From assembly GCA_045118975.1 (NCBI GenBank), contig JBGVCT010000016.1, positions 28,199 to 92,198 of the forward strand: 64,000 bases of DNA, read 5' to 3'. Position numbers and translations under genes: made by a program. Shown piece after piece: positions 24,497-41,607 of this stretch. Source of the stretch: Bacilli bacterium (GTDB taxonomy: Bacteria; Bacillota_I; Bacilli_A; RFN20; DUOF01). Under the pieces are notes generated by a model. The model was not told the origin of the DNA. It searched no databases and was given only the letters and a program-made list of their open reading frames with translations. Positions within the stretch are counted from its first letter, which is position 1; every line of letters begins with the position of its first letter.

Positions 24497-25427
24497 ATTG
24501 AAGGAATCTTTAGACTATTTTCGACATAGAACAGATTTATATGAAACGCCTGAGATGGAACTTGCAATAAGTAACAAAGGATTTAATGTGTATGGGATAT
24601 ACTGTCTTTTGTGTGAAAAATCTAGTAGAAATATAAATAAACCTTTAATTTTAGATGACGATATGATGCATCTGTTAGCAAGAAAAGTGGGAATGTTGGT
24701 TGCAGAATTTAAAGAAAATGTAGAGGAACTAATCAAAAGGAATTTGTTTGATCAAAAAAGTTATTATGAAACTAGGGCAATAACTAATGGAATAATAGAA
24801 GAAGGTAAAGAAATAACTAAAAACAAACGAGCTTCAAAGCGTGGCGATTCCAAAAAGGAATTCCATTTTGATAAAATAGAACGCCAAACTAGCAAAACGT
24901 TTAATAATAGTAAAAGTAATATAAATAGTAATAGTAAGAATGATAGTAATAGTAACAGTAATAGTGAAATTAATATTTATAGTTATAGTAATATTGATAG
25001 TGAAACGGGGAATCCTATCAATATAACTGATAATGAGAATAATGAAGATTCATCGCTATTTGTTAATGGCGTTTTAATTGCTGATGCTAATGATCTTTAT
25101 AGAATCGTAGAAGAACTAATGGAAGCTAATATGAATGCAGGTATTAAAAATAGTATTGATTCATATATAGAAGAAAATGTTATTGCTTTAGCTAGGGCAT
25201 TAGAGAATTGTCAGAATTCTAAAACGCAAGCGATATCTTTTAATTATATCAAGAAGGCATATTCACAAGAAAAGTTAAAATTATGTTCAAAAAGTCTAAT
25301 TTTGTCGAATGATGTCGAAATCGAAAATGTAGAAGATGAAGTAGAAGAATTAGAACGTTTAAAAGAAGAAAGACGAAAACGTAAACTATTGCATGATGAA
25401 AATGATGATGAAAACAACTTTGATTAA
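24459..25427 (+). CDS. DUF4373 (Lin1244/Lin1753-like) N-terminal domain protein with an Asn/Ser-rich low-complexity linker. Phage replication-initiation associated.
   Basis: LDYFRHRTDLYETPEMELAISNKGFNVYGIYCLLCEKSSRN resembles the DUF4373 signature. Central NSNS repeats. Acidic C-terminus. Confidence 0.4.
   Translation: MLTEKEVLLLNNRLKESLDYFRHRTDLYETPEMELAISNKGFNVYGIYCLLCEKSSRNINKPLILDDDMMHLLARKVGMLVAEFKENVEELIKRNLFDQKSYYETRAITNGIIEEGKEITKNKRASKRGDSKKEFHFDKIERQTSKTFNNSKSNINSNSKNDSNSNSNSEINIYSYSNIDSETGNPINITDNENNEDSSLFVNGVLIADANDLYRIVEELMEANMNAGIKNSIDSYIEENVIALARALENCQNSKTQAISFNYIKKAYSQEKLKLCSKSLILSNDVEIENVEDEVEELERLKEERRKRKLLHDENDDENNFD
24895..25010 (+). repeat. AAT/AGT-rich simple-sequence tract encoding the (N/S)n linker
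   Basis: Near-tandem AATAGTAAT / AGTAATAGT units. Confidence 0.6.
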
Positions 25428-25450
25428 TAAAATTCTTTAAATTTTGAATA

Positions 25451-25492
25451 AAAGGGCTTTGGAGTATAAATTGCTTTGAAAGCTCTTTTTTG
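25451..25492 (+). terminator. probable rho-independent terminator after the DUF4373 gene
   Basis: Imperfect stem GGGCTTT/AAAGCTC with an 18-nt loop followed by T6. Confidence 0.35.
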
Positions 25493-25610
25493 TTTGGTGG
25501 TGAAGATAAAAACGCACAAATAGAAAGCAATGTAATTTATATCCTCACCGTAGGTGATGTGTGCAAAAATAATTAAATTGGTGTAGTTTTTTAATTAGCT
25601 TCTCGGTGGT

Positions 25611-25639
25611 TTTACTTTTACTCAATATTATGCTATAAT
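25611..25639 (+). promoter_or_regulatory. candidate promoter of the three-gene operon
   Basis: -35 TTTACT, 17-nt spacer, -10 TATAAT at 25634-25639. Confidence 0.4.
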
Positions 25640-25657
25640 ATTGTCCGTTATAAGGTC

Positions 25658-28474
25658 GTGAGTGTAGTGAATGAAGAAAATGGAATTTATTTAGTAATCA
25701 TAATTGCTGTAATAATTCTTTTGGGGTGGGGTTATAGTCATTACAGAGAACTATATAATACTCCATTACCTACTCGTTCATCTAAAAGAAAGGTTAAATA
25801 TAATTCTAAATCTAGTGTGTATGAAAAATTGTTTATAGATGAATATAATGTTTATATAGATTTGTTAAATAATATTGATTACTATGAGAAATCTATAAGT
25901 GCCATGTCTAAAAAAATAAAAGGATGTTATTTTTTTGATAAAGAACTATATTATGCACTGAAAAAGAGAAGAGAAGAATACAAAGGAAAACACATTAACT
26001 ATTTAAATCGTTTGAAATCATTTTCGATAACTAATATGTTTGTTCCAATCGGAAGTGATCAATACAACATATTCATTAAAATGTATTTTCCAAATAATGC
26101 TAATTCAAACTTTTTCCTTCATGAATTTTTTAATAGGAAATATCATTATATTGAATACAATGGTGCTTATATTGTCTTTTATGAAGAAATGATTTTTCAC
26201 ATCAATACTGAGAAAAATACATTAAGATGTTATCGCTATGATGAAGTTAATCTTGACTATTATGATAGTTTTGTAAAGAGAGTATCTGTAAAGAAAAATG
26301 AAGAAATCATAGGAGAAACATGGCTTCATGCTAGAAAAGACGGAAGTCCTGATAGACGATATAGTCAAAATTATAGAATGTATAAAGTTTTGAAAGTAAA
26401 AGTGTATATGATGAATTATGAAACTGACTTGGCATTCTACAACAAGAAAGATTTACAAGAATTTAAATCATTTATTACTTCTATAAAAAGATTAGAAAAA
26501 AATTATCGACATGATACAGAAAGTAATAGAAATTCTAATTCCGATAAAATTGCTACTAACATTAAAGAAGAAAATATTATCTATCAGACTACGCTTTTTG
26601 ATGTAGATATAGAAAAAACTATAGATGAAGTAGATACTTCAAGTTTAATAATAGATGTTGAACCTATTTCTGAAACCACTTCAATGGTCAGTGATTTTAT
26701 AGAAAACATTATTTCTGAGCAAAAGTGCATTGAATGGTGTTTTCACGATGTTTTTGGATTGGGACAAGTACAAAATAATGAAAAAGAAATATTGACAATA
26801 GAATTTTTAGGAGGAACAACTAGAAAAATAGCTCAAACATATGCTGGGTTAAAACATGTTAAAAGTTCTGTTGGAAATAGCTGTATCATTAAAACTGAAA
26901 AATATGGTTATGGTGTGATTATCGAAAATAGGGAAGATGGAGTTATAATAGCAGAGTTTAAAGATAAAAAACATGTTATATCAGGTCCAAATAGTTCATA
27001 TGAGATTATAGATGTTGCAACATTAAGTGAATCAACTAAAGTACCTAATGAACAAATTATATCTGAAGCTGAAGCAAAAGAAGAAGTAAAAGAAAGTAAG
27101 CAAGTTACTATCGGAACTCTTGTCACACAAATGAAATATGGAAAAGGTGTTATATACAAAATAGAAGATGCTTCATATACTATTGTTTTTGATTCAGGAA
27201 TCGAAAAGAAAGTATCAAAAAGTTCATGCAGTGTATTGGAATACTTTGATAAAGAAAAATATGATTCAAAATTAGAAAAATTAAAAAGATTTGATTATGT
27301 ATCTATGAAAAATATAGGCTATGGAATTATAGTTGATTTTAACTCTGACACAATTACAATAGCCTGGAAAAATAAAACAGTTGAAAAATATAATATTCTA
27401 GTTACATGTTTACTTACTAGAGTTGTATCTGAAAGAAAAATAGAGTTGTTGAATTTAAGCATTGGCGATTATTTGTATAGTAAAAAATATGGCTATGGAA
27501 GAATTGTGGAGTTTATAGTAGATAAGATAAAACTCAAATTTTATGATGTTCCTAAAGAGATTCTTGTAGGAATGGAGTATCTGCAAATACCATCACTACA
27601 ACAACTTGAACAATTTAAATCAGAACTTAGACAGTCAAGCCTATCAAGAGATCTTACTTTTTTTACAAGATTGGATAAAAAATATTATTCGTATAAAGAA
27701 GCTCTTGACATATATACAGAATACTTTAGTTCTAAAAAATCAAAAGAAAAAAGTATGGTTATTAGCACATATAAAAAAGCAGGATTCAATCTGGTCAAAG
27801 ATTTCTTTGTATATTGCGGATATTTAAAACTAGAGGATTGTATTTATGAAGAAATTATTTCTACAAAAATTTATAAATATGATTATTCTATTGAGAGTGA
27901 TACATATAATTATATCTTAGATAAGATGTGTAAGTCATATTATTGTTTGAAGTATGATGATGGAGTGTATTTCACGTTTAGCAAGTATGGCGAATTCGGG
28001 TTTAATTTCTATGAACTTTTAAGTTTTATTGGAAAATTATTGGATTTTATAAAAGAACATAAATTTGTTTCAATTGTTTACTTGAAAAATAACTACGAAG
28101 GCTATTTGCCAGACGAAGGATTGTTACTGGCTATAATAAATTCTATTAGCATGATAAAATCGAGAAAAATGGGAAATTCATATATTTATCATTTGAAAGA
28201 CGGTCAAACAGTAAAGAAAGATTTGATGTATAAATTTATAGTAGAAGAATTTAATTGTATAAATAGTAAAAGTTGTGATATATATGATTTTATGGAGCAT
28301 TTAAATATAAAATACGAATTTGAATTTGAATATTCTACATTTGTTTTATTGTTAAATGAATTAGAAGATACTAATATTTATTATAGTGAAGATACAGAAA
28401 AAATATATAGCACTAAAGAAGAGTTTTATTTGGAGGTTTATGGAAATGGAAACGAAGAAAATAATAGCAATTAA
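25658..28474 (+). CDS. membrane-anchored 938-aa protein with four C-terminal Tudor-like KYGYG repeats (candidate defence component A). GTG start at 25658 or 25667.
   Basis: N-terminal TM helix IYLVIIIAVIILLGWGY. Repeats KYGYGVIIEN / KYGKGVIYKI / NIGYGIIVDF / KYGYGRIVEF spaced 60-75 aa. Stop overlaps the next gene. Confidence 0.5.
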   Translation: MSVVNEENGIYLVIIIAVIILLGWGYSHYRELYNTPLPTRSSKRKVKYNSKSSVYEKLFIDEYNVYIDLLNNIDYYEKSISAMSKKIKGCYFFDKELYYALKKRREEYKGKHINYLNRLKSFSITNMFVPIGSDQYNIFIKMYFPNNANSNFFLHEFFNRKYHYIEYNGAYIVFYEEMIFHINTEKNTLRCYRYDEVNLDYYDSFVKRVSVKKNEEIIGETWLHARKDGSPDRRYSQNYRMYKVLKVKVYMMNYETDLAFYNKKDLQEFKSFITSIKRLEKNYRHDTESNRNSNSDKIATNIKEENIIYQTTLFDVDIEKTIDEVDTSSLIIDVEPISETTSMVSDFIENIISEQKCIEWCFHDVFGLGQVQNNEKEILTIEFLGGTTRKIAQTYAGLKHVKSSVGNSCIIKTEKYGYGVIIENREDGVIIAEFKDKKHVISGPNSSYEIIDVATLSESTKVPNEQIISEAEAKEEVKESKQVTIGTLVTQMKYGKGVIYKIEDASYTIVFDSGIEKKVSKSSCSVLEYFDKEKYDSKLEKLKRFDYVSMKNIGYGIIVDFNSDTITIAWKNKTVEKYNILVTCLLTRVVSERKIELLNLSIGDYLYSKKYGYGRIVEFIVDKIKLKFYDVPKEILVGMEYLQIPSLQQLEQFKSELRQSSLSRDLTFFTRLDKKYYSYKEALDIYTEYFSSKKSKEKSMVISTYKKAGFNLVKDFFVYCGYLKLEDCIYEEIISTKIYKYDYSIESDTYNYILDKMCKSYYCLKYDDGVYFTFSKYGEFGFNFYELLSFIGKLLDFIKEHKFVSIVYLKNNYEGYLPDEGLLLAIINSISMIKSRKMGNSYIYHLKDGQTVKKDLMYKFIVEEFNCINSKSCDIYDFMEHLNIKYEFEFEYSTFVLLLNELEDTNIYYSEDTEKIYSTKEEFYLEVYGNGNEENNSN

Positions 28475-29654
28475 TACAGGAAGAAAAGAAAAAATGGTTA
28501 TAGGCGGGCACACTGTATTAGAAGATGTATATAAGGTCGATATTTCTACTTTATATTACAATGATGAAAATGGTAGAATAGCAACTTTTATTGCAGAATA
28601 TAAATCCAAAAGTGATGTTGCTATAAACGAGCTTTCATTTGATGAATATAATGAAACTATAATGCAATTTATCAAAGACTCTAGTAACAAAGATAAATAT
28701 AAAACTACTAAGGAAGATATAAAGAAAAACGGGCAATTGAGAATTGGTATCATTTTAGATGATGGTAGAGTAATTGACGGAAACAGACGTTTTACTTGTT
28801 TACGTGAATTATATAACGAAACCGGGGATGAAAGATATCAATATTTCGAATGCGTTATTTTAAAAGTACCTACAACTCTAAATGATAAAAAAATGATTAA
28901 ATCATTAGAATTGAAATATCAATTTGGAGAAGATGCTAGAGTAGATTATAATGCCATTGATAAATTAGTTGATGTATATAATCTTTTAGTGGGACCAAGT
29001 AGAATTTTTTCAATAAAAGAATATCGTGATCGTGTAAATAATCAAATCAAAGAAACTGATATAAAAAGAATGATGGTTAAAGCTGAAGTTATGTATGATT
29101 ATTTGGACTTTATAGGTATGAAAGAAAGATACGATATTGCTAGAGACTATAAATTAGATGGTCCAATTCAAGAAATAGCAGCACTAAAGTCTTCTTTATC
29201 AGACTTTGAGTGGAGCGAAGTAAGGCCAATTATGTATAAAGCCATGAAAGATGCAACTGGTGATAGAACAAGAGAAGTTCGTAGTCTAATAAAGGTATAT
29301 AAAAATAGTCCGTCAGAATTTGAAAAGATAAGAAATAATTTCTTAAATATCGAATTTAAGCAAGAACAAATCAAACATTCACAAGCAGAAGCAACCGAAG
29401 TTGTAACTAAAAAAGAAGAATTATCAGATTTAAAAGCAGAATATAAAGAACTTGTTAAGGATAGTATAGCTAAAACAGGAATAGATATGGCTAGAAAAAA
29501 ACAAAATGAGTTATTAAAAGGTGTAGTTAAGAAAATGTCTGAAATAGATAAAATATCGTTAAGACACTTACCTGAAGACTTGAAAAAAGAATTCATGCAA
29601 TATTTAAGTCAGTTAGAAATGGAAATTGCAATTTGTAAGAAGGAAATAGAATAA
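28440..29654 (+). CDS. ParB/DndB(DGQHR)-like N-terminal domain protein with DGNRR motif and a coiled-coil C-terminal half (candidate defence component B)
   Basis: VDISTLYYNDENGR ... LRIGIILDDGRVIDGNRRFTCLREL matches ParB-N/sulfiredoxin-fold boxes. Start ATG at 28440 with GGAGG RBS (track ORF starts upstream within the previous gene). Confidence 0.55.
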   Translation: MEMETKKIIAINTGRKEKMVIGGHTVLEDVYKVDISTLYYNDENGRIATFIAEYKSKSDVAINELSFDEYNETIMQFIKDSSNKDKYKTTKEDIKKNGQLRIGIILDDGRVIDGNRRFTCLRELYNETGDERYQYFECVILKVPTTLNDKKMIKSLELKYQFGEDARVDYNAIDKLVDVYNLLVGPSRIFSIKEYRDRVNNQIKETDIKRMMVKAEVMYDYLDFIGMKERYDIARDYKLDGPIQEIAALKSSLSDFEWSEVRPIMYKAMKDATGDRTREVRSLIKVYKNSPSEFEKIRNNFLNIEFKQEQIKHSQAEATEVVTKKEELSDLKAEYKELVKDSIAKTGIDMARKKQNELLKGVVKKMSEIDKISLRHLPEDLKKEFMQYLSQLEMEIAICKKEIE

Positions 29655-32227
29655 TGTTAGAGAAAGTTCATTTCAAATCATTATACAATTCTAAACAAGA
29701 TGATGTTATAAATGATTTTTATATTCCCGCATTATCTCAATCTAATGGTTATGACAGAATAAGCGCGTATTTTGATTCTAAAATTTTAAGAATGTATGCG
29801 GCGGGTCTAGAAAATATAAAAGATGGCGGGCGTGTTAGATTTATTTTTTCATGTGACCTTGATGAAGAAGATTATAACTTAATGAAGCAAGGATATGATT
29901 TAAGAGAAAAAATAAATTCAAAGTTACTTAATTCTATTTCAGATGAAGATGTTAATATTGATGTTTCAAATTTGGCGTATCTTATAGCTATTGGCGTAGT
30001 AGATATTAAGATTGCTTTTACTACTAAAGGAATTTTTCATGATAAATATGGGGTCTTTTCTGATTCTGAAGGAAACAAAGTATATTTTAGGGGATCGAAT
30101 AACGAAACTCTAGCTTCAATTATGTATAATTATGAAAGTTTTGAGACGTCTTGCTCATGGAATTGTGATGCGCGTGAAGAATTGAAAATTGACAATGCTG
30201 TTAGAACCTTTGAAGCTATATGGAATGATGAATTTCCAGAACTATATGTAATTCCGCTACCTGAATGTGTGAAAGAAAAACTTATAGGATATTCTTCTAA
30301 AGAAATATCTTCAATATATTATAAAAAAGAAAATTGTGCAATTTTTGATGTTGATGAACAATATCATTATACGTTGAATAATTTTTTAGATAACAAGTCG
30401 TTACTGGATACTCAAAGTAGTTTGTATAAGTATATTATACATCCTTATGTTGATTCTTACATTTCATATTCTGATACATATGTATTGAAGAATATTGGTT
30501 ATATGCAATTGAATAAACTGATTGTAGAAGTTAAAAAATATGCTTCACAATTAGGTTTTGATGTATACGTTGCTCCAAGACTAAGAAGGTTAATGTATGA
30601 AAGAGATATTTATATTGATAAGCGAAAAGACTTGGGAATTGCTATTAAACATAGAGACCCAAATTTAAATGAAGATTTCGAAAAATTTAAAAATATTATT
30701 AGTCAAGAGATGGTTAGAGAACTTCGTGAACCACAACAATGGGATGCTTATCATATAGCTAAAATGGTAAAATCTGCAAACTTTTCTGTTCCGGGAGCTG
30801 GTAAAACAACAATTGTATATGGTGCCTATGCCTATTTGGCAGCTATCAATAAAATTGATAAAATAGTTATGATTGGGCCTAAAAACTCATTTAGAGCATG
30901 GAAACAAGAATTTGTAGCAAACTTTGGTAATAAAAAAGAATTAAATGTATTAGATATACAAGCTAATAATGAACTTGACAAGAAATCTATGCTTAAGTAT
31001 CAATCAGATGATAAAAATTTAATTTTAGTTAATTATGAAAGCGTGCAAGGTGTGCTAGAAGAATTAACTTCGGCAATAAACGATAAAACATTGTTGGTAT
31101 TTGATGAAATTCATCGAATTAAATCTGTTAAGGGAAAAAGAGCAGAAGCTTGCCTTCGTTTAGCTAATAAAGCTAATTATAAAGTTGCTTTAACGGGAAC
31201 TCCATTACCAAATGGGTATGATGATATATATAACATGCTAAATATATTATTTTGCGATGAGTATAGTACATTTTTCGGATTTAAAGTTAACTATTTAAGA
31301 GAAGCTAGGTCTATATCTGCTTCACAAGATGCAATAAACAAGAAAATATTTCCGTTTTTTTGTAGAACTACGAAGAATGATTTACAAGTTCCGCCACCAT
31401 GCCAAGATGATACAGTTACTGGATATCTAGAAATGAATGATATTGAAGAAGAAATATTTTCTATAATTTATCGAGAATATTCATATAACACATTGATTTT
31501 ATATGTTCGTTTAACGCAGGCATCTTCTAATCCTGCATTATTGCTTAAATCAGTAGATAAAAATGATTTAGCTGATTTTGATGGGGATTGCGATGAAGAT
31601 GATTATGGTTTGTGGGATGAAATAGAGAAAGAAGATCATAAATTATCGAAAAAGGATTATGATTTTATCTTTAATAATATGACAACAAGAAAAATAGATA
31701 GATGTTGTGAGATAATTGAAGATAGGGTTCGCAATGGTGAAACTGTAGTAGCTTGGGGAATTTATATTGATAGTTTGAATTTGGTTTATGATAAATTGAC
31801 TTCAAAGGGAGTGAAAGCTGTAATAATAAGCGGAGCAACTCCTCAAGAAGTTCGCGATGAATATATTAATATGTTTTGTAATAAGGAAATAGATGTTTTG
31901 ATAACTAATCCACATACTTTAGCTGAGTCTGTTTCTTTGCATAAAACATGCCACTTTGCTATATATTTTGAGTATGATTTTAATTTAACTCATATGGTGC
32001 AATCTAGAGATAGAATTCACAGATTGGGGTTACCTGAAGGTCAAAAAACAGAATATTGTTATATGACGCTAAACTCAAAAACTAGTGAATATAATACTAT
32101 TGATGTAAAGATTTATGAAAGACTAAAAGAAAAAGAAAGAATAATGTTAGAGGCAGTTGAAAACAACGACATTGCTGTCGTTGAAGATGATTATATGGAT
32201 AATATTAATTTTATTTTACGTCGTTAA
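29654..32227 (+). CDS. PLD-like (HKD) nuclease domain fused to SNF2-family helicase (candidate defence component C)
   Basis: N-terminal HDKYGVFSD...GSNNET (HKD-like). SNF2 motifs PGAGKTT (I), LVFDEIHR (II), ALTGTPLPNGYDD (III), QSRDRIHRLG (VI). Start overlaps the upstream stop (TAATG). Confidence 0.75.
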   Translation: MLEKVHFKSLYNSKQDDVINDFYIPALSQSNGYDRISAYFDSKILRMYAAGLENIKDGGRVRFIFSCDLDEEDYNLMKQGYDLREKINSKLLNSISDEDVNIDVSNLAYLIAIGVVDIKIAFTTKGIFHDKYGVFSDSEGNKVYFRGSNNETLASIMYNYESFETSCSWNCDAREELKIDNAVRTFEAIWNDEFPELYVIPLPECVKEKLIGYSSKEISSIYYKKENCAIFDVDEQYHYTLNNFLDNKSLLDTQSSLYKYIIHPYVDSYISYSDTYVLKNIGYMQLNKLIVEVKKYASQLGFDVYVAPRLRRLMYERDIYIDKRKDLGIAIKHRDPNLNEDFEKFKNIISQEMVRELREPQQWDAYHIAKMVKSANFSVPGAGKTTIVYGAYAYLAAINKIDKIVMIGPKNSFRAWKQEFVANFGNKKELNVLDIQANNELDKKSMLKYQSDDKNLILVNYESVQGVLEELTSAINDKTLLVFDEIHRIKSVKGKRAEACLRLANKANYKVALTGTPLPNGYDDIYNMLNILFCDEYSTFFGFKVNYLREARSISASQDAINKKIFPFFCRTTKNDLQVPPPCQDDTVTGYLEMNDIEEEIFSIIYREYSYNTLILYVRLTQASSNPALLLKSVDKNDLADFDGDCDEDDYGLWDEIEKEDHKLSKKDYDFIFNNMTTRKIDRCCEIIEDRVRNGETVVAWGIYIDSLNLVYDKLTSKGVKAVIISGATPQEVRDEYINMFCNKEIDVLITNPHTLAESVSLHKTCHFAIYFEYDFNLTHMVQSRDRIHRLGLPEGQKTEYCYMTLNSKTSEYNTIDVKIYERLKEKERIMLEAVENNDIAVVEDDYMDNINFILRR

Positions 32228-33608
32228 TAATGGACAAAATAAATGATCTATCCAACCAGAAACAGTGTTTAGTATAATATGCTAAACCTGTTTTTTTATC
32301 TGGAACTGGTAAAATGTATCCACCACCACTTTTGTCTATACCAGTAGAGTCATGTGGTCTAACGTGACAAATGTGATTAAATGTACTTCCTGGGAAGTTA
32401 GTAAAATATTTTCCTGCTGAATATGAATTTACTATATCACCAGATTTGATAATTTTTTGAGTGTATTCCCATGTTTCTTTTACTTCTTTATCAAGTATTT
32501 CTAAAGGCATGTTCCAAAATTTAATTTTATCTAGATAGTAAACGCCATTTTTCTTCTTGAAAACAACAAACATATATTTAGTTGTATCAAATTTTTCTCT
32601 TAATTCAGAGGATTCCCACGTTTGCTCTGCAATATCTATATATTTAAATGTAGGAAAAGACATATGCTCTTTAATTTTGCCATTTTCTTCAATTCTAATT
32701 GTTTTTAATTCTAGATTTGCTTTTCTAAATTCATCGGTATTATTGATGTGACCGTTGAAACCTAACATTGCGCCAGTTAATACATTAAATCTGCTTTTTA
32801 GGGCAGGATTATTAGGTATGCCAAATTTTTCAAATAACTCGACTTCAGACATACCATAGTAAGGTTTTAATTTTTGATCCATAATTGCTTCAAATGTTGA
32901 ATTTTTAAGTTCTTCAAAAGAAACTATAGATTTACATTTTTCTCCAATAAGATTTTTATTTATTATTGTATTGATATATGAAGGCTTTAAGCAGTATGCT
33001 CTTTGTTTGGCTAATTTATCTGAAGCAGGTTGTTTTCTATAACTGCTTGCAGCATCTTTTCCTTTGGTGCAAGCGCCTAAATACATTGTGTCTGCTTCTG
33101 ACAAAGTATCAGCTAGTCCGTTATTAATTTTATCTACTATTAATTGCCAATCGTATTTTATTATTTCTAAATCTTCTTGAGAAAATGAATGAAGAATTGA
33201 ATCGATAAGATAAAAGTCGAAATCCTCTTTTTCTTCGTATAAATAAAACATTAATAATAGAGACATGTTTTTCTTCCAAAAAGTGCTATCTTCAAATGGG
33301 ATATTATATTCCAACATATAGTCAATGATATTAAGAACAAGTCTTTCTTTAGCTACATACTCATTATTTTTTAGTTTTTTTAGACCAGTTACTTTTAATT
33401 CTACGCCTAAATCAGCAAAATCAGCTTCAGGGCGAGAATTAGGAGGATAGTGAAAGACTCCTTCTTCAATAATTTGACCAATAACACCTTTATTGTTTTT
33501 TGCTAATGAGCGGTTATTAATATTGTATTCTGATATTCTATGACCACTTGTTTGCTTAGCAATTTCAAGTAGTTCGTTTGCTGAACTATATTTTGGTATT
33601 GTATTCAT
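32211..33608 (-). CDS. Sau3AI-like type II restriction endonuclease (tandem MutH/Sau3AI-fold domains, probable GATC specificity)
   Basis: Long collinear similarity to Sau3AI: GVELK..KKLKN..KERLVLNII, DYEIIKYDWQLI, LGACTKG, KQPASDKLAKQRAY and C-terminal ICHVRPH. Confidence 0.8.
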   Translation of the reverse strand: MNTIPKYSSANELLEIAKQTSGHRISEYNINNRSLAKNNKGVIGQIIEEGVFHYPPNSRPEADFADLGVELKVTGLKKLKNNEYVAKERLVLNIIDYMLEYNIPFEDSTFWKKNMSLLLMFYLYEEKEDFDFYLIDSILHSFSQEDLEIIKYDWQLIVDKINNGLADTLSEADTMYLGACTKGKDAASSYRKQPASDKLAKQRAYCLKPSYINTIINKNLIGEKCKSIVSFEELKNSTFEAIMDQKLKPYYGMSEVELFEKFGIPNNPALKSRFNVLTGAMLGFNGHINNTDEFRKANLELKTIRIEENGKIKEHMSFPTFKYIDIAEQTWESSELREKFDTTKYMFVVFKKKNGVYYLDKIKFWNMPLEILDKEVKETWEYTQKIIKSGDIVNSYSAGKYFTNFPGSTFNHICHVRPHDSTGIDKSGGGYILPVPDKKTGLAYYTKHCFWLDRSFILSIINDVK

Positions 33609-33746
33609 GTTATATCGCCTTCTTTATAGAAAAATTATAGCAAATAAAAATAAAGGGCACATTTATTTTAGAGATATTTCAAAAAAAACTTGATCAAGAC
33701 AGAAGTTTGTGATATGATTATAGTGTTTTGAAAGAGGTGAATCCGA

Positions 33747-34991
33747 GTGAATAAAAGTGTAGTTGAATTATTTGCTGGTGTAGGTGGTTTTAGAGTAGGA
33801 CTTAATAAAATCAAAAATATAGATAACAATGGTAAAGCAGTAGAAAATGGTGATTGGGATTTTGTGTGGGCTAATCAATGGGAACCTGCAACAAGAACTC
33901 AAGATGCTTTTGATTGTTATATAAAAAGATTTGGTAAAGATAGTTGTTCTAATGAAGATATAACTACTGTTATTAAAGAAAACATTCCTGACCATACATT
34001 ATTAACTGGTGGATTCCCTTGCCAAGATTACTCTGTTGCTAGAACAAAATCTGGCGAAAAAGGAATTGAAGGTAAAAAAGGTGTTTTATGGTGGCAAATC
34101 AATGACATCTTATTAGCTAAAAAGCCTCCATTTGTTTTATTAGAAAATGTAGATAGACTAATAAAAGCTCCTGCTAGACAAAGAGGTAGAGATTTTGGAA
34201 TTATTTTAAGATGTTTAAATGATGCTGGTTACTGTGTTGAATGGAGAGTAATTAATGCTGCAGAATATGGACATCCTCAAAAGAGAAGAAGAACATATAT
34301 ATTTGCATATAACAAAAATACAAACTATTACACTCAACAATGTAATGTGACTCCAGAAGAAATCTTATTAAATAAAGGTATGTTTGCTAAATCATTTCCT
34401 GTATCTAAGTTAGCTACTAAAGTTAGCCAAACAGATTTAAGTTCTAATTCATATAATGATTTAGTAGATATGACAGCAGAATTTAAATTCAACTTTGAAA
34501 ATAGTGGATACTTATGTGATGGTATTGTATATACAGCTAAAACTCAACCTGTATTGGAAGATCCAATCACATTATTCCAAATTAGAGAACAAGACAGCGT
34601 TGATGCAAAATATCAATTAACGAAGAATATAGATAAGTTCATATATTTAAAAGGAAGTAAAAAAATACCTAGAGTATCTAAAACTGGTATGGAATATAAT
34701 TATTCTGAAGGCAAAATGTCTTTCCCAGATAGATTAGATATGCCAGGTAGAACAATGCTTACAAGTGAAGGAACAGTAAATAGAAGTTCTCATGTAATAA
34801 GCGACTTACAAACTGGTATGTTAAGAATTATTACTCCAAAAGAAGCAGAAAGACTTAACCAATTCCCAGATAACTGGACTAATTCAGGAATGACAGATTC
34901 AAAGAGATACTTCATGATGGGAAATGCATTAGTTTGTGGCGTAATTGAAAAAATTGGTAATCAATTAAATGAAATTATAGACTGCGAATAA
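33747..34991 (+). CDS. DNA (cytosine-5)-methyltransferase, cognate of the Sau3AI-like endonuclease
   Basis: Motif I ELFAGVGGF, motif IV GGFPCQDYS, motif VI LLENV, motif VIII QKRRR. Confidence 0.9.
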   Translation: MNKSVVELFAGVGGFRVGLNKIKNIDNNGKAVENGDWDFVWANQWEPATRTQDAFDCYIKRFGKDSCSNEDITTVIKENIPDHTLLTGGFPCQDYSVARTKSGEKGIEGKKGVLWWQINDILLAKKPPFVLLENVDRLIKAPARQRGRDFGIILRCLNDAGYCVEWRVINAAEYGHPQKRRRTYIFAYNKNTNYYTQQCNVTPEEILLNKGMFAKSFPVSKLATKVSQTDLSSNSYNDLVDMTAEFKFNFENSGYLCDGIVYTAKTQPVLEDPITLFQIREQDSVDAKYQLTKNIDKFIYLKGSKKIPRVSKTGMEYNYSEGKMSFPDRLDMPGRTMLTSEGTVNRSSHVISDLQTGMLRIITPKEAERLNQFPDNWTNSGMTDSKRYFMMGNALVCGVIEKIGNQLNEIIDCE

Positions 34992-35015
34992 TTATATAAT
35001 TTTTATGGATGTTTT

Positions 35016-35047
35016 GTGAGAACATTTTGAGAACACTTTTTGGAAAA
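35016..35047 (+). repeat. GAGAACAYTTT direct repeats just inside attR (match the 21911-21975 cluster)
   Basis: GTGAGAACATTTTGAGAACACTTTTTGG. Confidence 0.45.
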
Positions 35048-35149
35048 TTGATTCTAAGCAATACTAAATTGGTGCGAAAAATAGTGAAAAATGACTAAAA
35101 ATATGGTGTTTTTACTATAAAAACCGAGTGTTTGCATACAATCATATGC

Positions 35150-35166: not shown

Positions 35167-35178
35167 GTGTGTCGTATG

Positions 35179-35208
35179 CGAACACCTTATCCAGGTGTTC
35201 GTTTTTTA
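35179..35208 (+). terminator. rho-independent terminator (probable original tRNA-cluster terminator displaced by island insertion)
   Basis: CGAACACC-TTATCCAG-GTGTTCG hairpin followed by T6, 12 nt after attR. Confidence 0.6.
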
Positions 35209-35237
35209 ATACAAAATCTTCATCAACTCCATTACAA

Positions 35238-35265
35238 AGAATACATGAACAGTATTCTTTTTTTG
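35238..35265 (+). terminator. second hairpin-T-run terminator
   Basis: AGAATAC-ATGAAC-AGTATTCT hairpin followed by T6. Confidence 0.5.
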
Positions 35266-35311
35266 TTTTATTAATATTCTGTTATAATAATATAAATTGG
35301 TGGTGAATTAG

Positions 35312-36772
35312 GTGAAAAAAGTAAATTTATTTGATATTTCTAAACTGCATGATAACAAAGCTATCAGTGAGATATATGTAAGATATTTGGCTGACTTTCC
35401 AGATGAAAAACAATATAGACACGAAGAAATTAAATATATAAATGAATTATTGAAAATACTTAATATAGAAACTGAAGAAGTAGAAGATTTTTATTATGGT
35501 TATGAAGTTCCACAATTAAATAAGGAGTTTGATTTACTTAAGGTTACAAAAGAGTCTGTATTAAACATAGAACTAAAAGGAACCGTGGATGATGAGTTGA
35601 AAATACTAGAACAGTTGAAGAAAAACTTGCACTATTTAAAACTTCTAAATAGAAAATGCTATCAGTTCACCTATTTATCTAAAGAACAAAAATTGTTCAA
35701 ATTGAATAAAAACAAACTAGAGGTCATAGATTTTGATGAATTGTATGAAGTAATTAAATCAATATCTCAAGAGGACATTGACGAAGTTTACTTAGATGAA
35801 TATTATAAACCAAATGTTATTTTGGTTTCTCCACTTAATAATCCTAAAAGATTTATAAGTAATTCATACTTACTAACTGAAAATCAGGAAAATATAAAAA
35901 AAGAAATAATTAATGATTTAGAAATTAATAACAAGAAATATTACGCTATTCATGGGAATGCAGGAACTGGAAAAACATTACTACTATATGATATTGGGAA
36001 AACACTTTCTGAAAATAAAAATATTCTTCTTATCCATTCTGGTATTATTTGTAAAGGACATAGCTTTTTGAATAAAAATATGGAAAAATTTAAGATAATT
36101 TCAGCAAAAGATTTAAAGTACAAAGATTTAAGAAATGTTGATGTTTTGCTTGTTGACGAAGCTCACAGATTGTATAGAGAAGATTTAGAAAAAATAATAA
36201 AATGGGTAAATAAGAAAGTTTACTCTTGTATTTTTTCTTTTGATGGAAAGCAAGTCTTATCTTATAGTGAAGAACGAAGGCAAACAACAGAAAATATAAA
36301 ATTCATATGCAAAGGAAGATTACACAAATTAACAAATAAAATTAGAACAAATAAAGAAATTTCCTTATTTGTACAATGTTTATTTGATTTGAGTAAGTAT
36401 AGGGATGAATACAAATTTGCTAACGTTAAAATTGTTTATGAGCCAGACAAACTTAAAGCGGTTGAAAGGGCAAAGAATGCTTTGGGTTACACATATATAT
36501 CATATACAGGTTCTTTTTATAATCATGATATAGACTACCAATTTTCTCAACATAATACTCACAATGTCATTGGTCAAGAATTCGATAGGGTATGTATGAT
36601 CATGGGAAATGAATTTTATTATAAAAACAATAAATTAAAAGGATATACTCATCCCACTCCGGACTATATTTATACTCAATTGTTATATCAAGGATTAACG
36701 AGAGCTCAAACTGGTGTGCTTTTAATAATAACTGATATTGAGCTTTTGAAAAGCATATTAAACCTGATTTAG
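35312..36772 (+). CDS. NERD/PD-(D/E)xK-like N-terminal domain fused to an SF1 (DUF2075-like) P-loop ATPase/helicase. Nhi-like candidate defence nuclease-helicase.
   Basis: N-terminal FDLLKV...VLNIELKG (D...E-x-K). Walker A HGNAGTGKT, Walker B LLVDEAHRL, motif VI-like GLTRAQTGVLLI. GTG start with GGTGGTGA RBS and a TATAAT at 35287. Confidence 0.55.
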   Translation: MKKVNLFDISKLHDNKAISEIYVRYLADFPDEKQYRHEEIKYINELLKILNIETEEVEDFYYGYEVPQLNKEFDLLKVTKESVLNIELKGTVDDELKILEQLKKNLHYLKLLNRKCYQFTYLSKEQKLFKLNKNKLEVIDFDELYEVIKSISQEDIDEVYLDEYYKPNVILVSPLNNPKRFISNSYLLTENQENIKKEIINDLEINNKKYYAIHGNAGTGKTLLLYDIGKTLSENKNILLIHSGIICKGHSFLNKNMEKFKIISAKDLKYKDLRNVDVLLVDEAHRLYREDLEKIIKWVNKKVYSCIFSFDGKQVLSYSEERRQTTENIKFICKGRLHKLTNKIRTNKEISLFVQCLFDLSKYRDEYKFANVKIVYEPDKLKAVERAKNALGYTYISYTGSFYNHDIDYQFSQHNTHNVIGQEFDRVCMIMGNEFYYKNNKLKGYTHPTPDYIYTQLLYQGLTRAQTGVLLIITDIELLKSILNLI

Positions 36773-36821
36773 AAAGAAAAAGTTGAATTTTATTAGATTT
36801 GTAATGAATGGAGGAAAATAA

Positions 36822-38066
36822 ATGAAGGTATCCAGCGCAATAAGTGAAGTATTAAACGTATTGAAAATCCCTAATGAAGAAAGAAGACTACTTCATGATA
36901 TTTATATAATTAAATATAGTGATAATATTAAATCGGAAAAAGATTATGATAAATTAAGAAATAATCCAGAATATCATCTTGTTGGTAGAGAAAAAATACG
37001 AAAGTATAACTCGGCATTTGAGCACTTATATAATTCTTTAGGTCTTGAGGTGGCAGGACTATCATCAAATGAATTTAGAAAGAAAATTGAGCAATTACTA
37101 TTTTTTGACAATTTTACTGAGGAAAAAATTAGAGAAAAATTGAAAAGTATACCTCTGCAACACTATCATTGTGTAGATAAAATATATGGGATAAACATAG
37201 AAAATGATATGCTAGTATTAGGAAAATACACATTATTAAATCCTATTTATATATCTCATTACTTAAAAGAAAAAATAGAAGCAAAAAACCATCACTATAT
37301 AGATGATTTTATAGATACAGAAGAAAATGCAGATAAATTCATATACGTTATTTGTGATTATTCAGGTAAAGGCGTTGATTTACCAAGGGAAAAATTTGAT
37401 ATGGATTTAGCGACCTTTATAAATATTCTTAGATATATGATTCGAATAAAAAATTCAAGACTTAACATAGATTTAAGTGCATATAATCCAAGGCAGCTAA
37501 ATAAATTTCAATTTTCTGATGAGGGTAGTATCTATAGTAGTTTTAAGATAGATAGAAAAGATGTGACAATTACATTGTATGAAGACTATATTACAGATAT
37601 TGATTTGGGTTTTAATAAAATTTGGGAAATAACTAATAAAGATAACAAAAATGATTTTGAAAATAGAATTATGCTTGCTATAGATTGGGTTGGACAGTCT
37701 CTTCAAGAAAATAATGATGATATGTCAATATGTAAACTTGCTTTTGCATTTGAGTCATTATTTCATGTGCAAAAAGATAATATGATAAGCCCAAGTATTC
37801 AATATAGTATTGCAGAGAGTGTCGCTTTCCTAATTGGAAAAACGCCTGAAGAAAGGATAAATATAAAAAAAAGATTTAAGGAATTTTATTCTCATAGATC
37901 TTCAATTGTTCATGGTGGAAGTTCTAAAAAGAAGAGTGATTATGACTATTTCTTGTCATTATTAATAGGGTCCATTTCGTATTTATTGACTGATGAAAAT
38001 TTTGCGAATTGTAAAAACGGAGAAGATATATCCAATATTCTTGATATGAACTTTAAGTTTAAATAA
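36822..38066 (+). CDS. hypothetical protein with C-terminal HEPN-like helical domain (Rx4HGG motif)
   Basis: C-terminal helices ending in FYSHRSSIVHGGSS (R-x4-H, the HEPN RNase signature). Co-directional, 50 nt after the upstream gene. Confidence 0.4.
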   Translation: MKVSSAISEVLNVLKIPNEERRLLHDIYIIKYSDNIKSEKDYDKLRNNPEYHLVGREKIRKYNSAFEHLYNSLGLEVAGLSSNEFRKKIEQLLFFDNFTEEKIREKLKSIPLQHYHCVDKIYGINIENDMLVLGKYTLLNPIYISHYLKEKIEAKNHHYIDDFIDTEENADKFIYVICDYSGKGVDLPREKFDMDLATFINILRYMIRIKNSRLNIDLSAYNPRQLNKFQFSDEGSIYSSFKIDRKDVTITLYEDYITDIDLGFNKIWEITNKDNKNDFENRIMLAIDWVGQSLQENNDDMSICKLAFAFESLFHVQKDNMISPSIQYSIAESVAFLIGKTPEERINIKKRFKEFYSHRSSIVHGGSSKKKSDYDYFLSLLIGSISYLLTDENFANCKNGEDISNILDMNFKFK

Positions 38067-38374
38067 AAATTGAGAGCTTTATTTAGCTAAATAAAGTTTA
38101 AAATAGAAATAATAACCTTTTAAATATAACAGTTCGTTTTCTATATTTTGAGTTCCACCATATCTAAATAATTACTCTGATACAATCGTGTATTGGAGTT
38201 TTTTTATACCAATTCATAGTAAAATAGGAAAGGTTTGGATGTTTCAAGTGTATTTGTCCTTAAGTAATGTTTAAATGATGCAGTTGTAAGGACTCTAATA
38301 TAGCGAGGTTTAGTTTAAGTATCATTATCTGTATTATGTAGGCGCGTAATGGATCAAGATCAAAAAAACAAGCA

Positions 38375-38402
38375 AAAAAGGCATCCGAAGATGCCTTTTT
38401 TG
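38375..38402. terminator. bidirectional rho-independent terminator
   Basis: GGCATCCGAAGATGCC hairpin flanked by an A-run upstream and a T-run downstream. Confidence 0.65.
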
Positions 38403-38540
38403 AAAACCTCCACAGTCTATTACACGAGCAATAGATAGCTTTGAATACACACATATATTACTTAATTTTACACTATTTGTCAAATATAAGTTATAATAAT
38501 GTGTACAATATATAGTATGAACTGTTGTTGTAAATTTATA

Positions 38541-39386
38541 CTAAATCATAAAATATATTTTTAAATTTTCTTTTATCTTTTGAATTTCCTCTTCAGTTAA
38601 TTCAATAGTTAGTTGGGTGTTTTTATCAATCAAAGGTTTTACAAAACGTTTAATACTGATTCGTTTTCCGTCATTTAATTTAATAATATTTGTTTTTCCG
38701 TCAATAATTTTTTTAATATTATAATAGTAATTCTTTTTTGGGATTTTGCTAGTTATTGGAAAAACAAAATATGAACTATCTTCTTTATTTTCTGTATTAA
38801 CGTGTTCCTTCCAAACTAAGACAGGTCTTAATTTGTTTATTTCAGAACCTACGTTATTTCCAATATAAGCAAAGTAAATTCTATATTGTACAATATCAAG
38901 TTTAGATTTGTATTTTGAAAATTTAATATCTTCTTTTGTAATGGCCCATTCTAGATATTTAAGCATTTGCTCTGTTAGTGTTATATCATTCAATTTTCCA
39001 TCAATGAGATTGCTGCCTATGGTTGTATTACACTTTGTACCAAAGTCTATCAATAATTTATCTACTATTGATTTGGTGACTAAATCAAATTCATATGGTG
39101 TAGCTATTACTTCTTTTCCTTTTAAATGAAGTTGACGTTGCATTTGATGTTTGTTTATTTTTTCATATGTTCCAAGTATGTAAACTTTATTTAAATTGTT
39201 TATAGTAATATATTTAGAAGTTGATTCAGGTTCAACTAATTTTGCCATTAAGACAAAAGGTTTAACATCAGTATCTCCAAGATAAATTCCTATTTGTTCT
39301 TCACCATTTTCGTCTAGATATGAATATATATTTTTAGGAAATAATTGTACTTTCATTTTTGTCACCTCTAATATTAAGTATATCAT
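38541..39386 (-). CDS. MazF/PemK-like toxin domain (C-terminal ~120 aa) fused to an unknown ~160-aa N-terminal domain
   Basis: C-terminal region IYFAYIGNNVGSEINKLRPVLVW...YFVFPITSK...IIKLNDGKRISIKRF aligns with the MazF G-SEQ-G-RP-VV and downstream motifs. Confidence 0.5.
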   Translation of the reverse strand: MIYLILEVTKMKVQLFPKNIYSYLDENGEEQIGIYLGDTDVKPFVLMAKLVEPESTSKYITINNLNKVYILGTYEKINKHQMQRQLHLKGKEVIATPYEFDLVTKSIVDKLLIDFGTKCNTTIGSNLIDGKLNDITLTEQMLKYLEWAITKEDIKFSKYKSKLDIVQYRIYFAYIGNNVGSEINKLRPVLVWKEHVNTENKEDSSYFVFPITSKIPKKNYYYNIKKIIDGKTNIIKLNDGKRISIKRFVKPLIDKNTQLTIELTEEEIQKIKENLKIYFMI

Positions 39387-39474: not shown

Positions 39475-39786
39475 ATGGTAGGCAAATATAAAGTTATTAC
39501 ATTATGTGGAAGTACTAAATTTAAGGAAGAGTTTTTAAGAGAACAAAAAAGACTAACGTTAGAAGGCAATATAGTAGTTTCAGTAGGCTTGTTTGGTCAT
39601 AGTGGTGACAACGAAGTTTGGAGTGAAGGAACTAAAGAAATGTTAGATGATATGCATAAAAGAAAAATAGATATGGCGGATGAAATATTTGTTATAAATA
39701 AAGATGGATATGTTGGTAGTAGTACTAAATCGGAGATAGAATACGCAATTAAAACAAACAAAAAAGTTGTTTATATGGAAAATTGA
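39475..39786 (+). CDS. hypothetical small protein (103 aa), possible Rossmann/SLOG-like nucleotide-binding mini-domain
   Basis: Pattern KVITLCGSTKF...LEGNIVVSVG resembles the glycine/serine-rich first strand-loop of LOG/SLOG-type folds. Weak. Confidence 0.35.
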   Translation: MVGKYKVITLCGSTKFKEEFLREQKRLTLEGNIVVSVGLFGHSGDNEVWSEGTKEMLDDMHKRKIDMADEIFVINKDGYVGSSTKSEIEYAIKTNKKVVYMEN

Positions 39787-39956
39787 TCTTATAACGATTA
39801 CTTAAAGCGAATTATTAAAGGGGGATAAAGAAAAATAAGCAAAAAAGGCGAGGCTTCAAAAAGTGTATGCACAACCAAATGTAAAGCATAAGTTGGATAC
39901 AATAGTGTTCAACTTTTTTTGCTTATATAAATGGTTGTGCTATTATAATTAAGGAG

Positions 39957-40586
39957 ATGATTGGTGTGAAAAACAAGCTAGTTACCAAAGAAGCTCATAA
40001 TGCGATAGCAGAAAAGTATTATGAATTATATAAAGATGATATATCAGATTTGAAATATTTTGATTTATTTTTAGAATGTTGTAAATCTAAAATTTTGGAT
40101 TTAGGATGTGGTATGGGACATTATTCAAATTATATGTATAATAAAGGATTTGATGTTGTGGGTATTGATTTTTCACAAAATATGATAAATATAGCAAAAA
40201 AAGATAATCCAAACATTAATTTTATTGTTTCAGATATTTGTGATTTAGATGTGATAAAAAATCAAAAATTTGATGGAGTTGTCATAGCGTATGTTTTACA
40301 ACATTTATCTAAAGAAGAAGTTTTAGATTTATTTGTACAAATAAATAATATAGTTAATGATAATTCTAAACTATTAATATTTTTAAGAGAAGGTAATGGT
40401 ATTGTTGAGGAAGTAGAACCCATTGATACAAGATATAAATATGTAATAAACGAATATTCTAAAGGGGAAATAAGCGAAATTTTAATAAAAAATGGGTGGA
40501 AGATAAATTTAATAGATACAAAAGAATATATAGAAGACCCTAACTCTCTTGCTCCCAATACCTTGGTTATATTGGCGGAAAAATAG
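39957..40586 (+). CDS. class I SAM-dependent methyltransferase
   Basis: Motif I ILDLGCGMGHYS. Motif II DGVVIAYVLQHL. Confidence 0.7.
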   Translation: MIGVKNKLVTKEAHNAIAEKYYELYKDDISDLKYFDLFLECCKSKILDLGCGMGHYSNYMYNKGFDVVGIDFSQNMINIAKKDNPNINFIVSDICDLDVIKNQKFDGVVIAYVLQHLSKEEVLDLFVQINNIVNDNSKLLIFLREGNGIVEEVEPIDTRYKYVINEYSKGEISEILIKNGWKINLIDTKEYIEDPNSLAPNTLVILAEK

Positions 40587-40629
40587 CCTTTTATTTATGT
40601 GTTGATTTTTAGTAAGAGCAAATAAAATT

Positions 40630-41607
40630 GTGGGTATTTGTGATATATTGTATATGGATGGTGGTTGTAGTATGGTTATGAAAGATTCTAATTTTATCGA
40701 GTCATTGAAGAATTTAGATAAAGAAAAATTAGCAATGATACCAAAGGCGGATTTACATAATCATGCTGTTTTTTCTTGTGGGAGAGACTACTTGGCTATG
40801 AATAATGTTGATATTCCTTTAGATCAAAGAGTTAATAATATTAGTGATTTAATAAATTTTGCTAGAAAATATATTAAACCCCTACAAAATAATAAAGAAG
40901 GATTATATGTATTGTTAAATGGAACTTTCAAAAAATGCTTAGAAACTGGTGTAACTATAGTTGATACAAATATTGACTATAAAATATGTATTCAAGTGTT
41001 TGATAACAATGTTAGTGAGTTTGTGAATTTCCTTAAATATTTTACATATGAAAACTTAAAGGTTCATTGGATAATTGATATTAGTAGGGATAGTTATTTG
41101 CAAGAATATGAAGAAATCATTATTGAATTAATTAAAACAGGTTTTTTCTATGGAATAGATTTAACTTCAACAGAAAATTGTCTACCTAATATAATGTTTA
41201 AAAATATTTATGAATTGGCAAATAAAAGCGGGTTAATAACAAAAGTTCATTGTGGTGAACAATTGGGAGCAGATTATATAAAAGAGTGCATCAATGATTT
41301 TAATCCTAAGCAAATTCAACATGGTATACGTATTGTGGAAAGTGAAGATGTAATGAAATTAGCAAAATCAAAAGGGATAGTATTCAATGTGTGTCCTACA
41401 AGTAATCTTGTTTTAAATTATGCGAAAAGTTTAAAGGAACATCCAATATCTTATATGGTATATTATGGATTGAATGTTACTATAGGAACAGATGATATTT
41501 TATTATTTGAAAGTGATATAAATGATGAATATATAAAATTATATGAGAATAAGGTATTAACTGCAGAACAGTTGGATAAGATACGCGAGTTCTCTTTAAG
41601 GGTATAA
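40630..41607 (+). CDS. adenosine/adenine deaminase-like amidohydrolase
   Basis: ADLHNHAV (metal-binding HxH), VHCGEQ (HAGE-like), GTDDIL (C-terminal Asp ligand). True start probably the internal Met (MVMKDSNF). Confidence 0.55.
   Translation: MGICDILYMDGGCSMVMKDSNFIESLKNLDKEKLAMIPKADLHNHAVFSCGRDYLAMNNVDIPLDQRVNNISDLINFARKYIKPLQNNKEGLYVLLNGTFKKCLETGVTIVDTNIDYKICIQVFDNNVSEFVNFLKYFTYENLKVHWIIDISRDSYLQEYEEIIIELIKTGFFYGIDLTSTENCLPNIMFKNIYELANKSGLITKVHCGEQLGADYIKECINDFNPKQIQHGIRIVESEDVMKLAKSKGIVFNVCPTSNLVLNYAKSLKEHPISYMVYYGLNVTIGTDDILLFESDINDEYIKLYENKVLTAEQLDKIREFSLRV

Follow-up and report, generated by a model that had tools for sequence, protein, structure and literature searches.

A nuclease-helicase gene and a HEPN-domain gene side by side in a bacterial defense hotspot: probably two modules rather than one system

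Introduction

Two genes that are read in the same direction and are separated by a few tens of base pairs raise the question of whether their products work together. Such a pair is found in the window, the 64,000-nucleotide stretch of a Bacilli bacterium contig analyzed here. The first gene codes for a nuclease-helicase (protein 1) and the second for a protein with a HEPN domain (protein 2). The initial annotation suggested that the two might constitute a variant two-component system, in which a nuclease-helicase immunity (Nhi)-like protein is combined with a HEPN RNase. The Nhi-like identity of protein 1 and the HEPN motif of protein 2 have withstood closer analysis, whereas the two-component system and the assignment of the nuclease to the NERD family have not. 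The pair probably represents two independent single-gene anti-phage modules, which are neighbors in a defense hotspot close to tRNA genes and are probably transcribed together.

Layout of the locus

The pair is positioned immediately outside a 13.1-kb integrative island, which carries an integrase gene and adjoins the tRNA-Leu gene of an Ile-Asn-Glu-Thr-Leu tRNA cluster (Table 1). The direct repeats that bracket the island (21913-21968 and 35012-35053) are imperfect: their core is identical at 18/18 positions, and a 38-nt copy agrees at 87%. The earlier placement of the pair just outside attR and close to a tRNA gene is thus confirmed. The cargo of the island includes a PbeA-like PLD+SNF2 protein and a Sau3AI-family restriction-modification (R-M) pair. 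The GC content is about 27% throughout, and there is no compositional break at the pair.

Both open reading frames were found exactly where the initial annotation had put them. Terminators had been assigned to positions 35238 and 38375 on either side of the pair. The second is a strong hairpin visible on both strands, and is probably a bidirectional terminator common to the convergent PemK-like gene. The first is weak and was not called by the consensus terminator scan. Two additional hairpins were found, one of which is predicted to insulate the pair from the Dcm methylase gene upstream, while the other follows protein 2. The spacer between the two genes contains neither a hairpin nor a called terminator (folding energy -2.5 kcal/mol, z +0.25; terminator scan). 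With a short spacer free of terminators and hairpins on the outer flanks only, the two co-directional genes have an operon arrangement at this locus and are probably co-transcribed.

Table 1. Features of the locus (positions are those of the window)
Feature	Position	Strand	Description
tRNA-Leu	21778-21860		beside the 13.1-kb island
Tyrosine integrase	22070-23167	-	belongs to the 13.1-kb island
Right-hand direct repeat (attR-like)	35012-35053		of the 13.1-kb island; left boundary of the region holding the pair
Strong terminator-like hairpin with U-run	35178-35202	+	5' of protein 1; -15.2 kcal/mol, z -4.4; terminator scan
Weak A/U-rich hairpin with U7	35236-35266 (hairpin 35236-35260)	+	-7.4 kcal/mol, z -2.1; the site annotated at 35238
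Protein 1 gene	35312-36772	+	GTG start, 486 aa
PD-(D/E)xK nuclease core, protein 1	35531-35578	+	D74 ... E87-L-K89, invariant in 8/8 sequences
Walker A / helicase motif I, protein 1	35954-35977	+	GNAGTGKT, residues 214-222; G215 and G218-T222 invariant (8 sequences)
Walker B / helicase motif II, protein 1	36152-36166	+	V281-D-E-A-H285; D282, E283 and A284 invariant (8 sequences)
Motif VI-like block, protein 1	36689-36718	+	Q460-G-L-T-R-A-Q-T-G-V469
Spacer between the two genes	36773-36821	+	49 bp; GGAGG at 36810-36814, 7 nt before ATG
Protein 2 gene	36822-38066	+	ATG start, 414 aa
N-terminal ~272 residues, protein 2	36822-37637	+	helical subdomain and α/β 'mid' subdomain
C-terminal HEPN domain, protein 2	37647-38063	+	about residues 276-414
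Rx4H catalytic-type motif, protein 2	37896-37913	+	R359-S-S-I-V-H364
Terminator-like hairpin with U7	38174-38199	+	-11.6 kcal/mol, z -3.6; 108 nt past the protein 2 stop codon
Strong hairpin flanked by A-run and U-run	38373-38402		-17.7 kcal/mol, z -6.1 on the + strand; scan call on the - strand; the site annotated at 38375

Protein 1 is an AbiO/Nhi-like nuclease-helicase

Judged from its sequence, protein 1 is most likely a single polypeptide of the AbiO/Nhi type, combining a PD-(D/E)xK nuclease with an SF1B-type (DUF2075/Schlafen group 3) helicase. Two PADLOC profiles match it from end to end. Positions 1-466 (of 468) of the AbiO profile are aligned with residues 1-485 at an E-value of 1.2e-128, and the Nhi profile is matched over positions 1-468 (of 470) at 7.6e-126. 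The helicase domain also scores above the cut-offs of the Pfam families SLFN-g3_helicase (39.4 bits, cut-off 24) and PIF1 (28.5 bits, cut-off 25.9). The Nhi-like architecture that had been proposed for this protein is therefore borne out.

All of the motifs by which the protein was originally recognized - FDLL...IELKG, GNAGTGKT, VDEAH and TRAQTGV (residues 463-469) - are present. Protein 1 was aligned with seven full-length homologs from Clostridia-type genomes, to which it is 41-51% identical. The putative catalytic residues D74, E87 and K89 are the same in all eight sequences, which places the D...ExK signature within the FDLL...IELKG block. In the motif VI-like block Q460, G461 and T463 are invariant, and R464 is found in seven of the eight sequences. 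The 'NERD' label is not supported, and the generic PD-(D/E)xK reading alone holds up. NERD (PF08378) is absent from the 16 Pfam matches at E <= 0.1, and the PADLOC 'NERD+UvrD' model aligns with the Walker A region only (residues 207-242).

AbiO has been described as an N-terminal PD-(D/E)XK restriction-endonuclease-like fold followed by an SF1B helicase (PMC13064643), and mutation has demonstrated that the nuclease motif of Nhi is required for immunity (bioRxiv 10.1101/776245). Because of this published architecture, the profile matches and the invariant motifs, protein 1 is, as far as its sequence can tell, an ordinary member of a family that is already known. Genes of this family are often plasmid-borne, being found in 191 plasmid records and four phage records.

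Protein 2 contains a HEPN domain with an invariant Rx4H motif

Protein 2 has no match in Pfam, PADLOC or NCBIfam. Its structure was predicted with AlphaFold2 at high confidence (pLDDT 94, pTM 0.91) when a 132-sequence alignment was used; a shallow alignment of five sequences had given a pLDDT of 51. A match to the Ska1 microtubule-binding domain (E = 7.5e-4), obtained with a five-sequence profile, disappeared with the 132-sequence profile and is considered spurious.

[quoted passage not shown] The HEPN domain is a bundle of helices (residues 278-295, 299-314, 326-338, 342-363, 374-390 and 400-412) and carries an Rx4-6H motif, as expected for this superfamily, so that the original identification of the second protein as HEPN stands. 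The segment quoted in the initial annotation, FYSHRSSIVHGG, comprises residues 355-366. The Rx4H motif within it is genuine, but it had been placed at the very end of the protein, whereas the segment is 48 residues short of the C terminus. A chance occurrence can be dismissed, because R359 and H364 are invariant among 132 diverse members of the family, as are E311 (37752-37754) and Y356. These sequences are 17-36% identical to protein 2 and only about 20% identical to each other. S360 is invariant in a 62-sequence set. In the N-terminal region, for which no relative is known and which may be a sensor or regulatory part, G123 and G134 are near-invariant, and N201-I-L-R-Y205 forms a subfamily motif.

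The protein 2 family is large and mobile

A word-indexed search with protein 2 as the sole query found five proteins. An exhaustive profile search was far deeper, yielding 4,072 representatives at E <= 1e-3, 322 of them at E <= 1e-30, where each count refers to clusters at 50% identity. Nearly all representatives are about 400 aa long and are matched over their full length. When the N-terminal region was the sole query, every protein returned by this search of limited sensitivity had the same ~400-aa architecture, so there is no sign that the domain has been shuffled onto other effectors.

The family is a large and uncharacterized one, is carried as plasmid and prophage cargo, occurs in Bacillota and Pseudomonadota, and is missing from Pfam, NCBIfam and PADLOC. 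Relatives are solitary genes on plasmids of Priestia, Listeria and Cronobacter, the last of which also has a tail-fiber gene. In two P2-like prophage lineages the relative occupies the cargo end, beyond the genes for tail, lysis and Dam; one of these relatives has RloB+AAA_21 as its neighbor. Such cargo sites are the usual seats of defense genes. In two phage-like contigs the relative is situated between a phage SAM synthetase gene, with or without HNH, and the terminase gene. A PHROG phage protein family is matched by 13 of 62 family members. Not one of 50,697 phage genomes was matched by protein 2 in a tblastn search, although prophages and phage-like contigs do carry relatives. A search for loci of the close subfamily found nothing in viral contigs and retrieved four short metagenome contigs. 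The other loci are chromosomal or are short metagenome contigs, and some relatives are surrounded by housekeeping genes (P0003 context). Typically, the gene is solitary, often with flanking genes on the opposite strand. In locus L034 it is abutted by an open reading frame of 323 aa.

The two genes do not occur together elsewhere

If proteins 1 and 2 formed a system, their relatives could be expected to be neighbors in other genomes. The sample examined was modest, consisting of 14 independent loci on the Nhi side (10 genomic and four plasmid) and 19 independent loci on the protein 2 side, eight of which are contigs of less than 4 kb with little flanking DNA. Hidden Markov models (HMMs) of both families were run against every open reading frame of at least 60 aa in loci L001-L033, and gene tables were used for three other contexts. 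Neither approach detected the pair in any of the 14 Nhi loci or the 19 protein 2 loci. It was met only in the window and in two identical copies, L001 and L002, which come from two independent sequencing runs. The pair is intact in both, but they represent the same locus and not independent lineages.

The neighbors of the Nhi-like gene are different in all 14 loci, as would be expected for a single-gene system without a conserved partner. They include AlbA_2, DUF4832/4874, a type I R subunit, an IS30 transposase, DUF6173, DUF6291, Fe-ADH, SIMPL, DUF3967 and GIY-YIG, or a same-strand neighbor is absent. On the upstream side the loci have type I M/S subunits, DUF3800, PIN or SmpB. The proposal of a two-component Nhi and HEPN system is not supported, because the search in both directions revealed no cross-occurrence. 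A lineage-specific partnership may nevertheless exist, because protein 2 has no relatives of more than 37% identity outside this locus.

Alternative explanations

The layout of the pair is the main argument against two separate modules, since co-directional genes 49 bp apart with no terminator between them are what is expected of an operon with coupled functions. The two products might then form a system particular to this lineage, in which detection of phage DNA by the Nhi-like protein would switch on the HEPN RNase, or the RNase would serve as its backup, so that both DNA and RNA are targeted. The unstructured spacer with its own GGAGG, the hairpins on the outer flanks and the intact pair in both sequencing runs agree with this, and a few other Nhi-like genes have a gene of nuclease type directly downstream: L004 and L011 have AlbA_2 there, and in L033 a GIY-YIG gene overlaps the Nhi-like one. 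Such a system is nonetheless very unlikely given the complete lack of co-occurrence in the 14 Nhi and 19 protein 2 loci, the single lineage represented by the two copies and the solitary position of most protein 2 relatives. Moreover, Nhi and AbiO were each enough alone in published experiments (bioRxiv 10.1101/776245; PMC13064643). Adjacency and probable co-transcription are also what is expected of genes packed in a defense hotspot. The downstream nuclease-type genes permit a broader and quite improbable reading, according to which Nhi/AbiO-like helicase-nucleases are hubs with interchangeable effectors, HEPN here, AlbA_2/Schlafen-like in L004 and L011, and GIY-YIG in L033. If that were true, this locus would be the first in which a DNA-sensing Nhi is coupled to an RNA-cleaving HEPN effector.

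Other alternatives concern protein 2 by itself. It could be an addiction or competition toxin of a mobile element, or an RNase encoded by phages for host takeover or superinfection exclusion, and have come to lie beside the Nhi gene by chance. Its relatives on phages, prophages and plasmids, the PHROG matches and the PemK/MazF-like gene next door are compatible with this origin, and HEPN domains are common as toxins of toxin-antitoxin systems (PMC3710099). A type II or type III toxin-antitoxin module was rejected, however, as neither a gene for an MNT-type or other small antitoxin nor a repeat RNA was found. The flanking intergenic DNA of the pair has no Rfam match above the gathering score and no tandem repeats, and the open reading frames in 38067-38540 are all short (21-64 aa), their translations being hydrophobic or of low complexity. 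In addition, the prophage positions are typical of defense cargo, with RloB+AAA_21 as a neighbor in one case. The toxin or phage RNase is therefore unlikely, and its superinfection-exclusion variant overlaps with the preferred explanation, since such exclusion, when exerted by a prophage, counts as anti-phage defense. The least probable alternative is that the HEPN domain is catalytically inactive, or binds a ligand or nucleotide, and has a regulatory or housekeeping role. MtlR is an example of such non-catalytic HEPN proteins, and some members of the family do reside among housekeeping genes. Against this, R359, H364, E311 and Y356 are preserved as an active-site signature at about 20% pairwise identity, and a patchy distribution tied to mobile elements is not what housekeeping genes usually show.

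Two independent modules thus remain the preferred explanation of the pair. By analogy with Nhi of Staphylococcus epidermidis and lactococcal AbiO, the SF1B helicase of protein 1 would engage phage replication intermediates, and its N-terminal nuclease would degrade them, which would block the accumulation of phage DNA. Sensor and effector would be parts of one polypeptide, so that no partner would be needed. The HEPN domains of protein 2 are predicted to dimerize, with R359 and H364 creating a composite, metal-independent RNase site in which E311 and Y356 would be conserved auxiliaries. The N-terminal ~270 residues may keep this RNase off until a cue of infection is sensed. The activated protein would then cut tRNA or mRNA, leading to translation arrest and abortive infection. 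This sensor-plus-HEPN model of protein 2 is suggested by the invariant active site, the lack of an antitoxin gene or RNA, the distribution in mobile elements and defense hotspots, and the analogy to ApeA and DARNA.

For annotation, the analysis separates a known system, the AbiO/Nhi-like one, from its neighbor. It also serves as a warning that operon-like adjacency in defense islands is not evidence for a multi-component system. Its main value is that the protein 2 family is flagged as a testable new defense candidate. There is about an even chance that protein 2 founds a new and widespread family of single-protein HEPN abortive-infection systems, with a previously undescribed sensor fold and residing at plasmid and prophage cargo sites; this is far more probable than the hub with interchangeable effectors. 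A member with demonstrated activity against phage would constitute a new single-gene HEPN system. The sensor domain could then reveal a new infection cue, as did the studies of ApeA (deoxydinucleotides) and DARNA (SSB-bound ssDNA).

Comparison with known systems

Protein 1 shares with AbiO of Lactococcus lactis and the Nhi family of S. epidermidis SERP2475 the order of an N-terminal PD-(D/E)xK nuclease and a DUF2075/SF1B helicase, with the catalytic residues kept. As in that family, it is encoded by a single gene without a conserved partner in a defense-island position. The genomic sequences most similar to it come without exception from Clostridia and relatives and are about 50% identical, compared to only 33-39% for the best plasmid-borne ones. 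SERP2475 has an additional C-terminal Glyas_Bleomycin-R-like domain, which was called poorly conserved (bioRxiv 10.1101/776245). Protein 1 stops directly past motif VI, leaving no space for this domain, and Pfam did not find it in protein 1.

The HEPN family of protein 2 is uncharacterized but sizeable, and the protein belongs among the single-protein HEPN effectors. The structures closest to its catalytic domain are those of the minimal HEPN toxins (HepT/HEPN-MNT, SO_3166, AF0298 and YutE), at a sequence identity of 6-15%. These toxins are 120-150 aa long and have a separate MNT antitoxin, whereas protein 2 has a fused N-terminal region of 270 aa and no adjacent antitoxin. In AbiA, unlike protein 2, the HEPN domain is fused to a polymerase. 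DARNA (PD-T7-3) was rejected because its order is reversed, an N-terminal HEPN domain being followed by a C-terminal Pds5-like helical domain. The Pfam and PADLOC models of DARNA and of the lactococcal HEPN Abi proteins AbiV, AbiA (C-terminal domain), AbiD/F and AbiJ match neither protein 2 nor its relatives.

ApeA is a single-protein HEPN abortive-infection system, a tRNA anticodon nuclease activated by deoxydinucleotides (bioRxiv 10.64898/2026.01.26.701840). Membership of protein 2 in the ApeA family was rejected, as there is no significant sequence, profile or structure match. The only sequence in the Protein Data Bank matched by the protein 2 family profile is Thr1ApeA (9hxl), at a non-significant E of 4.1, in three collinear micro-matches on the conserved motifs of the protein 2 family. 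Pfam HEPN_Apea is matched by one of 62 family members (at 0.0078), no ApeA N-terminal-domain family (ApeA-NTD1) is among the Pfam families reported for these 62, and PADLOC gives no ApeA match. Ec2ApeA, with a HEPN region that by itself spans residues 335-583, exceeds protein 2 in length by about 150 residues. The HEPN domain of protein 2 is compact and is not interrupted by large insertions. Nevertheless, ApeA is the closest functional analog of protein 2, with the same domain order and the same single-protein logic. The model topology and the sampled contexts make protein 2 a single, stand-alone polypeptide, which is an analogy to ApeA and not membership. In both proteins a non-catalytic N-terminal and middle region precedes a C-terminal HEPN domain with R-x4-H-G-G, and both are encoded by stand-alone genes in defense and R-M neighborhoods.

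Genes adjoining the Nhi-like homologs

Some homologs of protein 1, the 486-aa AbiO/Nhi-like nuclease-helicase, are directly followed by a nuclease-type gene, an association that is recurrent, yet not conserved family-wide. In Gemmiger and Pseudoflavonifractor (L004 7536-8678 and L011 7537-8679; numbers after an L-number are those of the comparison locus) the gene encodes a 380-aa AlbA_2/Schlafen-like protein and lies 62 bp downstream. On a Rossellomorea plasmid (L033 2050-2517) it is a GIY-YIG gene that overlaps the stop codon of the Nhi gene. A gene for a DUF3800 protein is found directly upstream, at a distance of ~20 bp, in two of the ten genomic loci, and in L007 it is itself preceded by a PIN_12 protein. 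The Nhi-like gene occupies two ORFs in Pseudoflavonifractor capillosus ATCC 29799 (L011 5950-7474) and in a Treponema MAG (L012 4733-5879). Frameshifts or pseudogenes, or else misassembly, account for these splits.

Relatives of the HEPN protein on phages and prophages

Among its non-identical relatives, the two nearest to protein 2, the 414-aa HEPN-domain protein, share 34-36% identity with it (regions L003 8353-11095 and L014 4576-7260). Both are placed between a phage-borne S-adenosylmethionine synthetase, directly upstream, and a large terminase downstream. In L014 the upstream region also contains an HNH gene, and a ParB_N-methyltransferase fusion gene is immediately 5' of the synthetase. 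In P2-like prophages of Pseudomonas ogarae and of a metagenome lineage, distant family members occupy the cargo end (L034 7001-11332; L035 and L036 7001-8215). A 323-aa ORF without a Pfam match begins 2 nt past the HEPN gene stop in L034, followed by an RloB and AAA_21 ATPase pair on the opposite strand. This ORF could be a lineage-specific partner.

Surroundings of the pair in the window

The gene to the right of the HEPN gene, with which it is convergent, encodes a protein that ends in a PemK/MazF toxin domain of 110 residues. The N-terminal region of ~160 residues matched no family and no separate antitoxin ORF is evident for this gene; the protein could be a MazF-type module of a fused or unconventional kind. 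Three co-directional genes come next, and could constitute a nucleoside-modifying cassette adjoining the defence genes.

Features of the window and of two comparison loci
Feature	Position	Strand	Match
Imperfect direct repeats bounding the island	21913-21968 and 35012-35053
Tyrosine integrase	22070-23167	-
HTH repressor-like gene	23319-24071	-
938-aa ORF	25658-28474		Pfam: none
422-aa ORF	28386-29654		ddrB-ParB (weak)
PbeA-like PLD+SNF2 protein	29654-32227		PADLOC PbeA, 2e-67
Sau3AI-family type II restriction enzyme	32211-33608	-	NCBIfam, 9.6e-153
Dcm-type C5 methyltransferase	33747-34991	+
281-aa PemK/MazF-domain protein	38541-39386	-
103-aa protein	within 39475-41607		DUF4406, nucleoside deoxyribosyltransferase-like (weak)
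209-aa SAM methyltransferase	within 39475-41607
325-aa adenosine-deaminase-family protein	within 39475-41607
DUF3800 genes upstream of Nhi-like genes	L007 5165-5971; L009 2046-2876

To the left of the pair is a 13.1-kb integrative island (21913-35053) that adjoins a tRNA-Leu gene. The divergent genes of a Sau3AI-family enzyme and a Dcm-type methyltransferase occupy its right end (32211-34991). The 938-aa ORF, the 422-aa ORF and the PbeA-like gene of the island cargo are consecutive and may represent a Pbe-like system.
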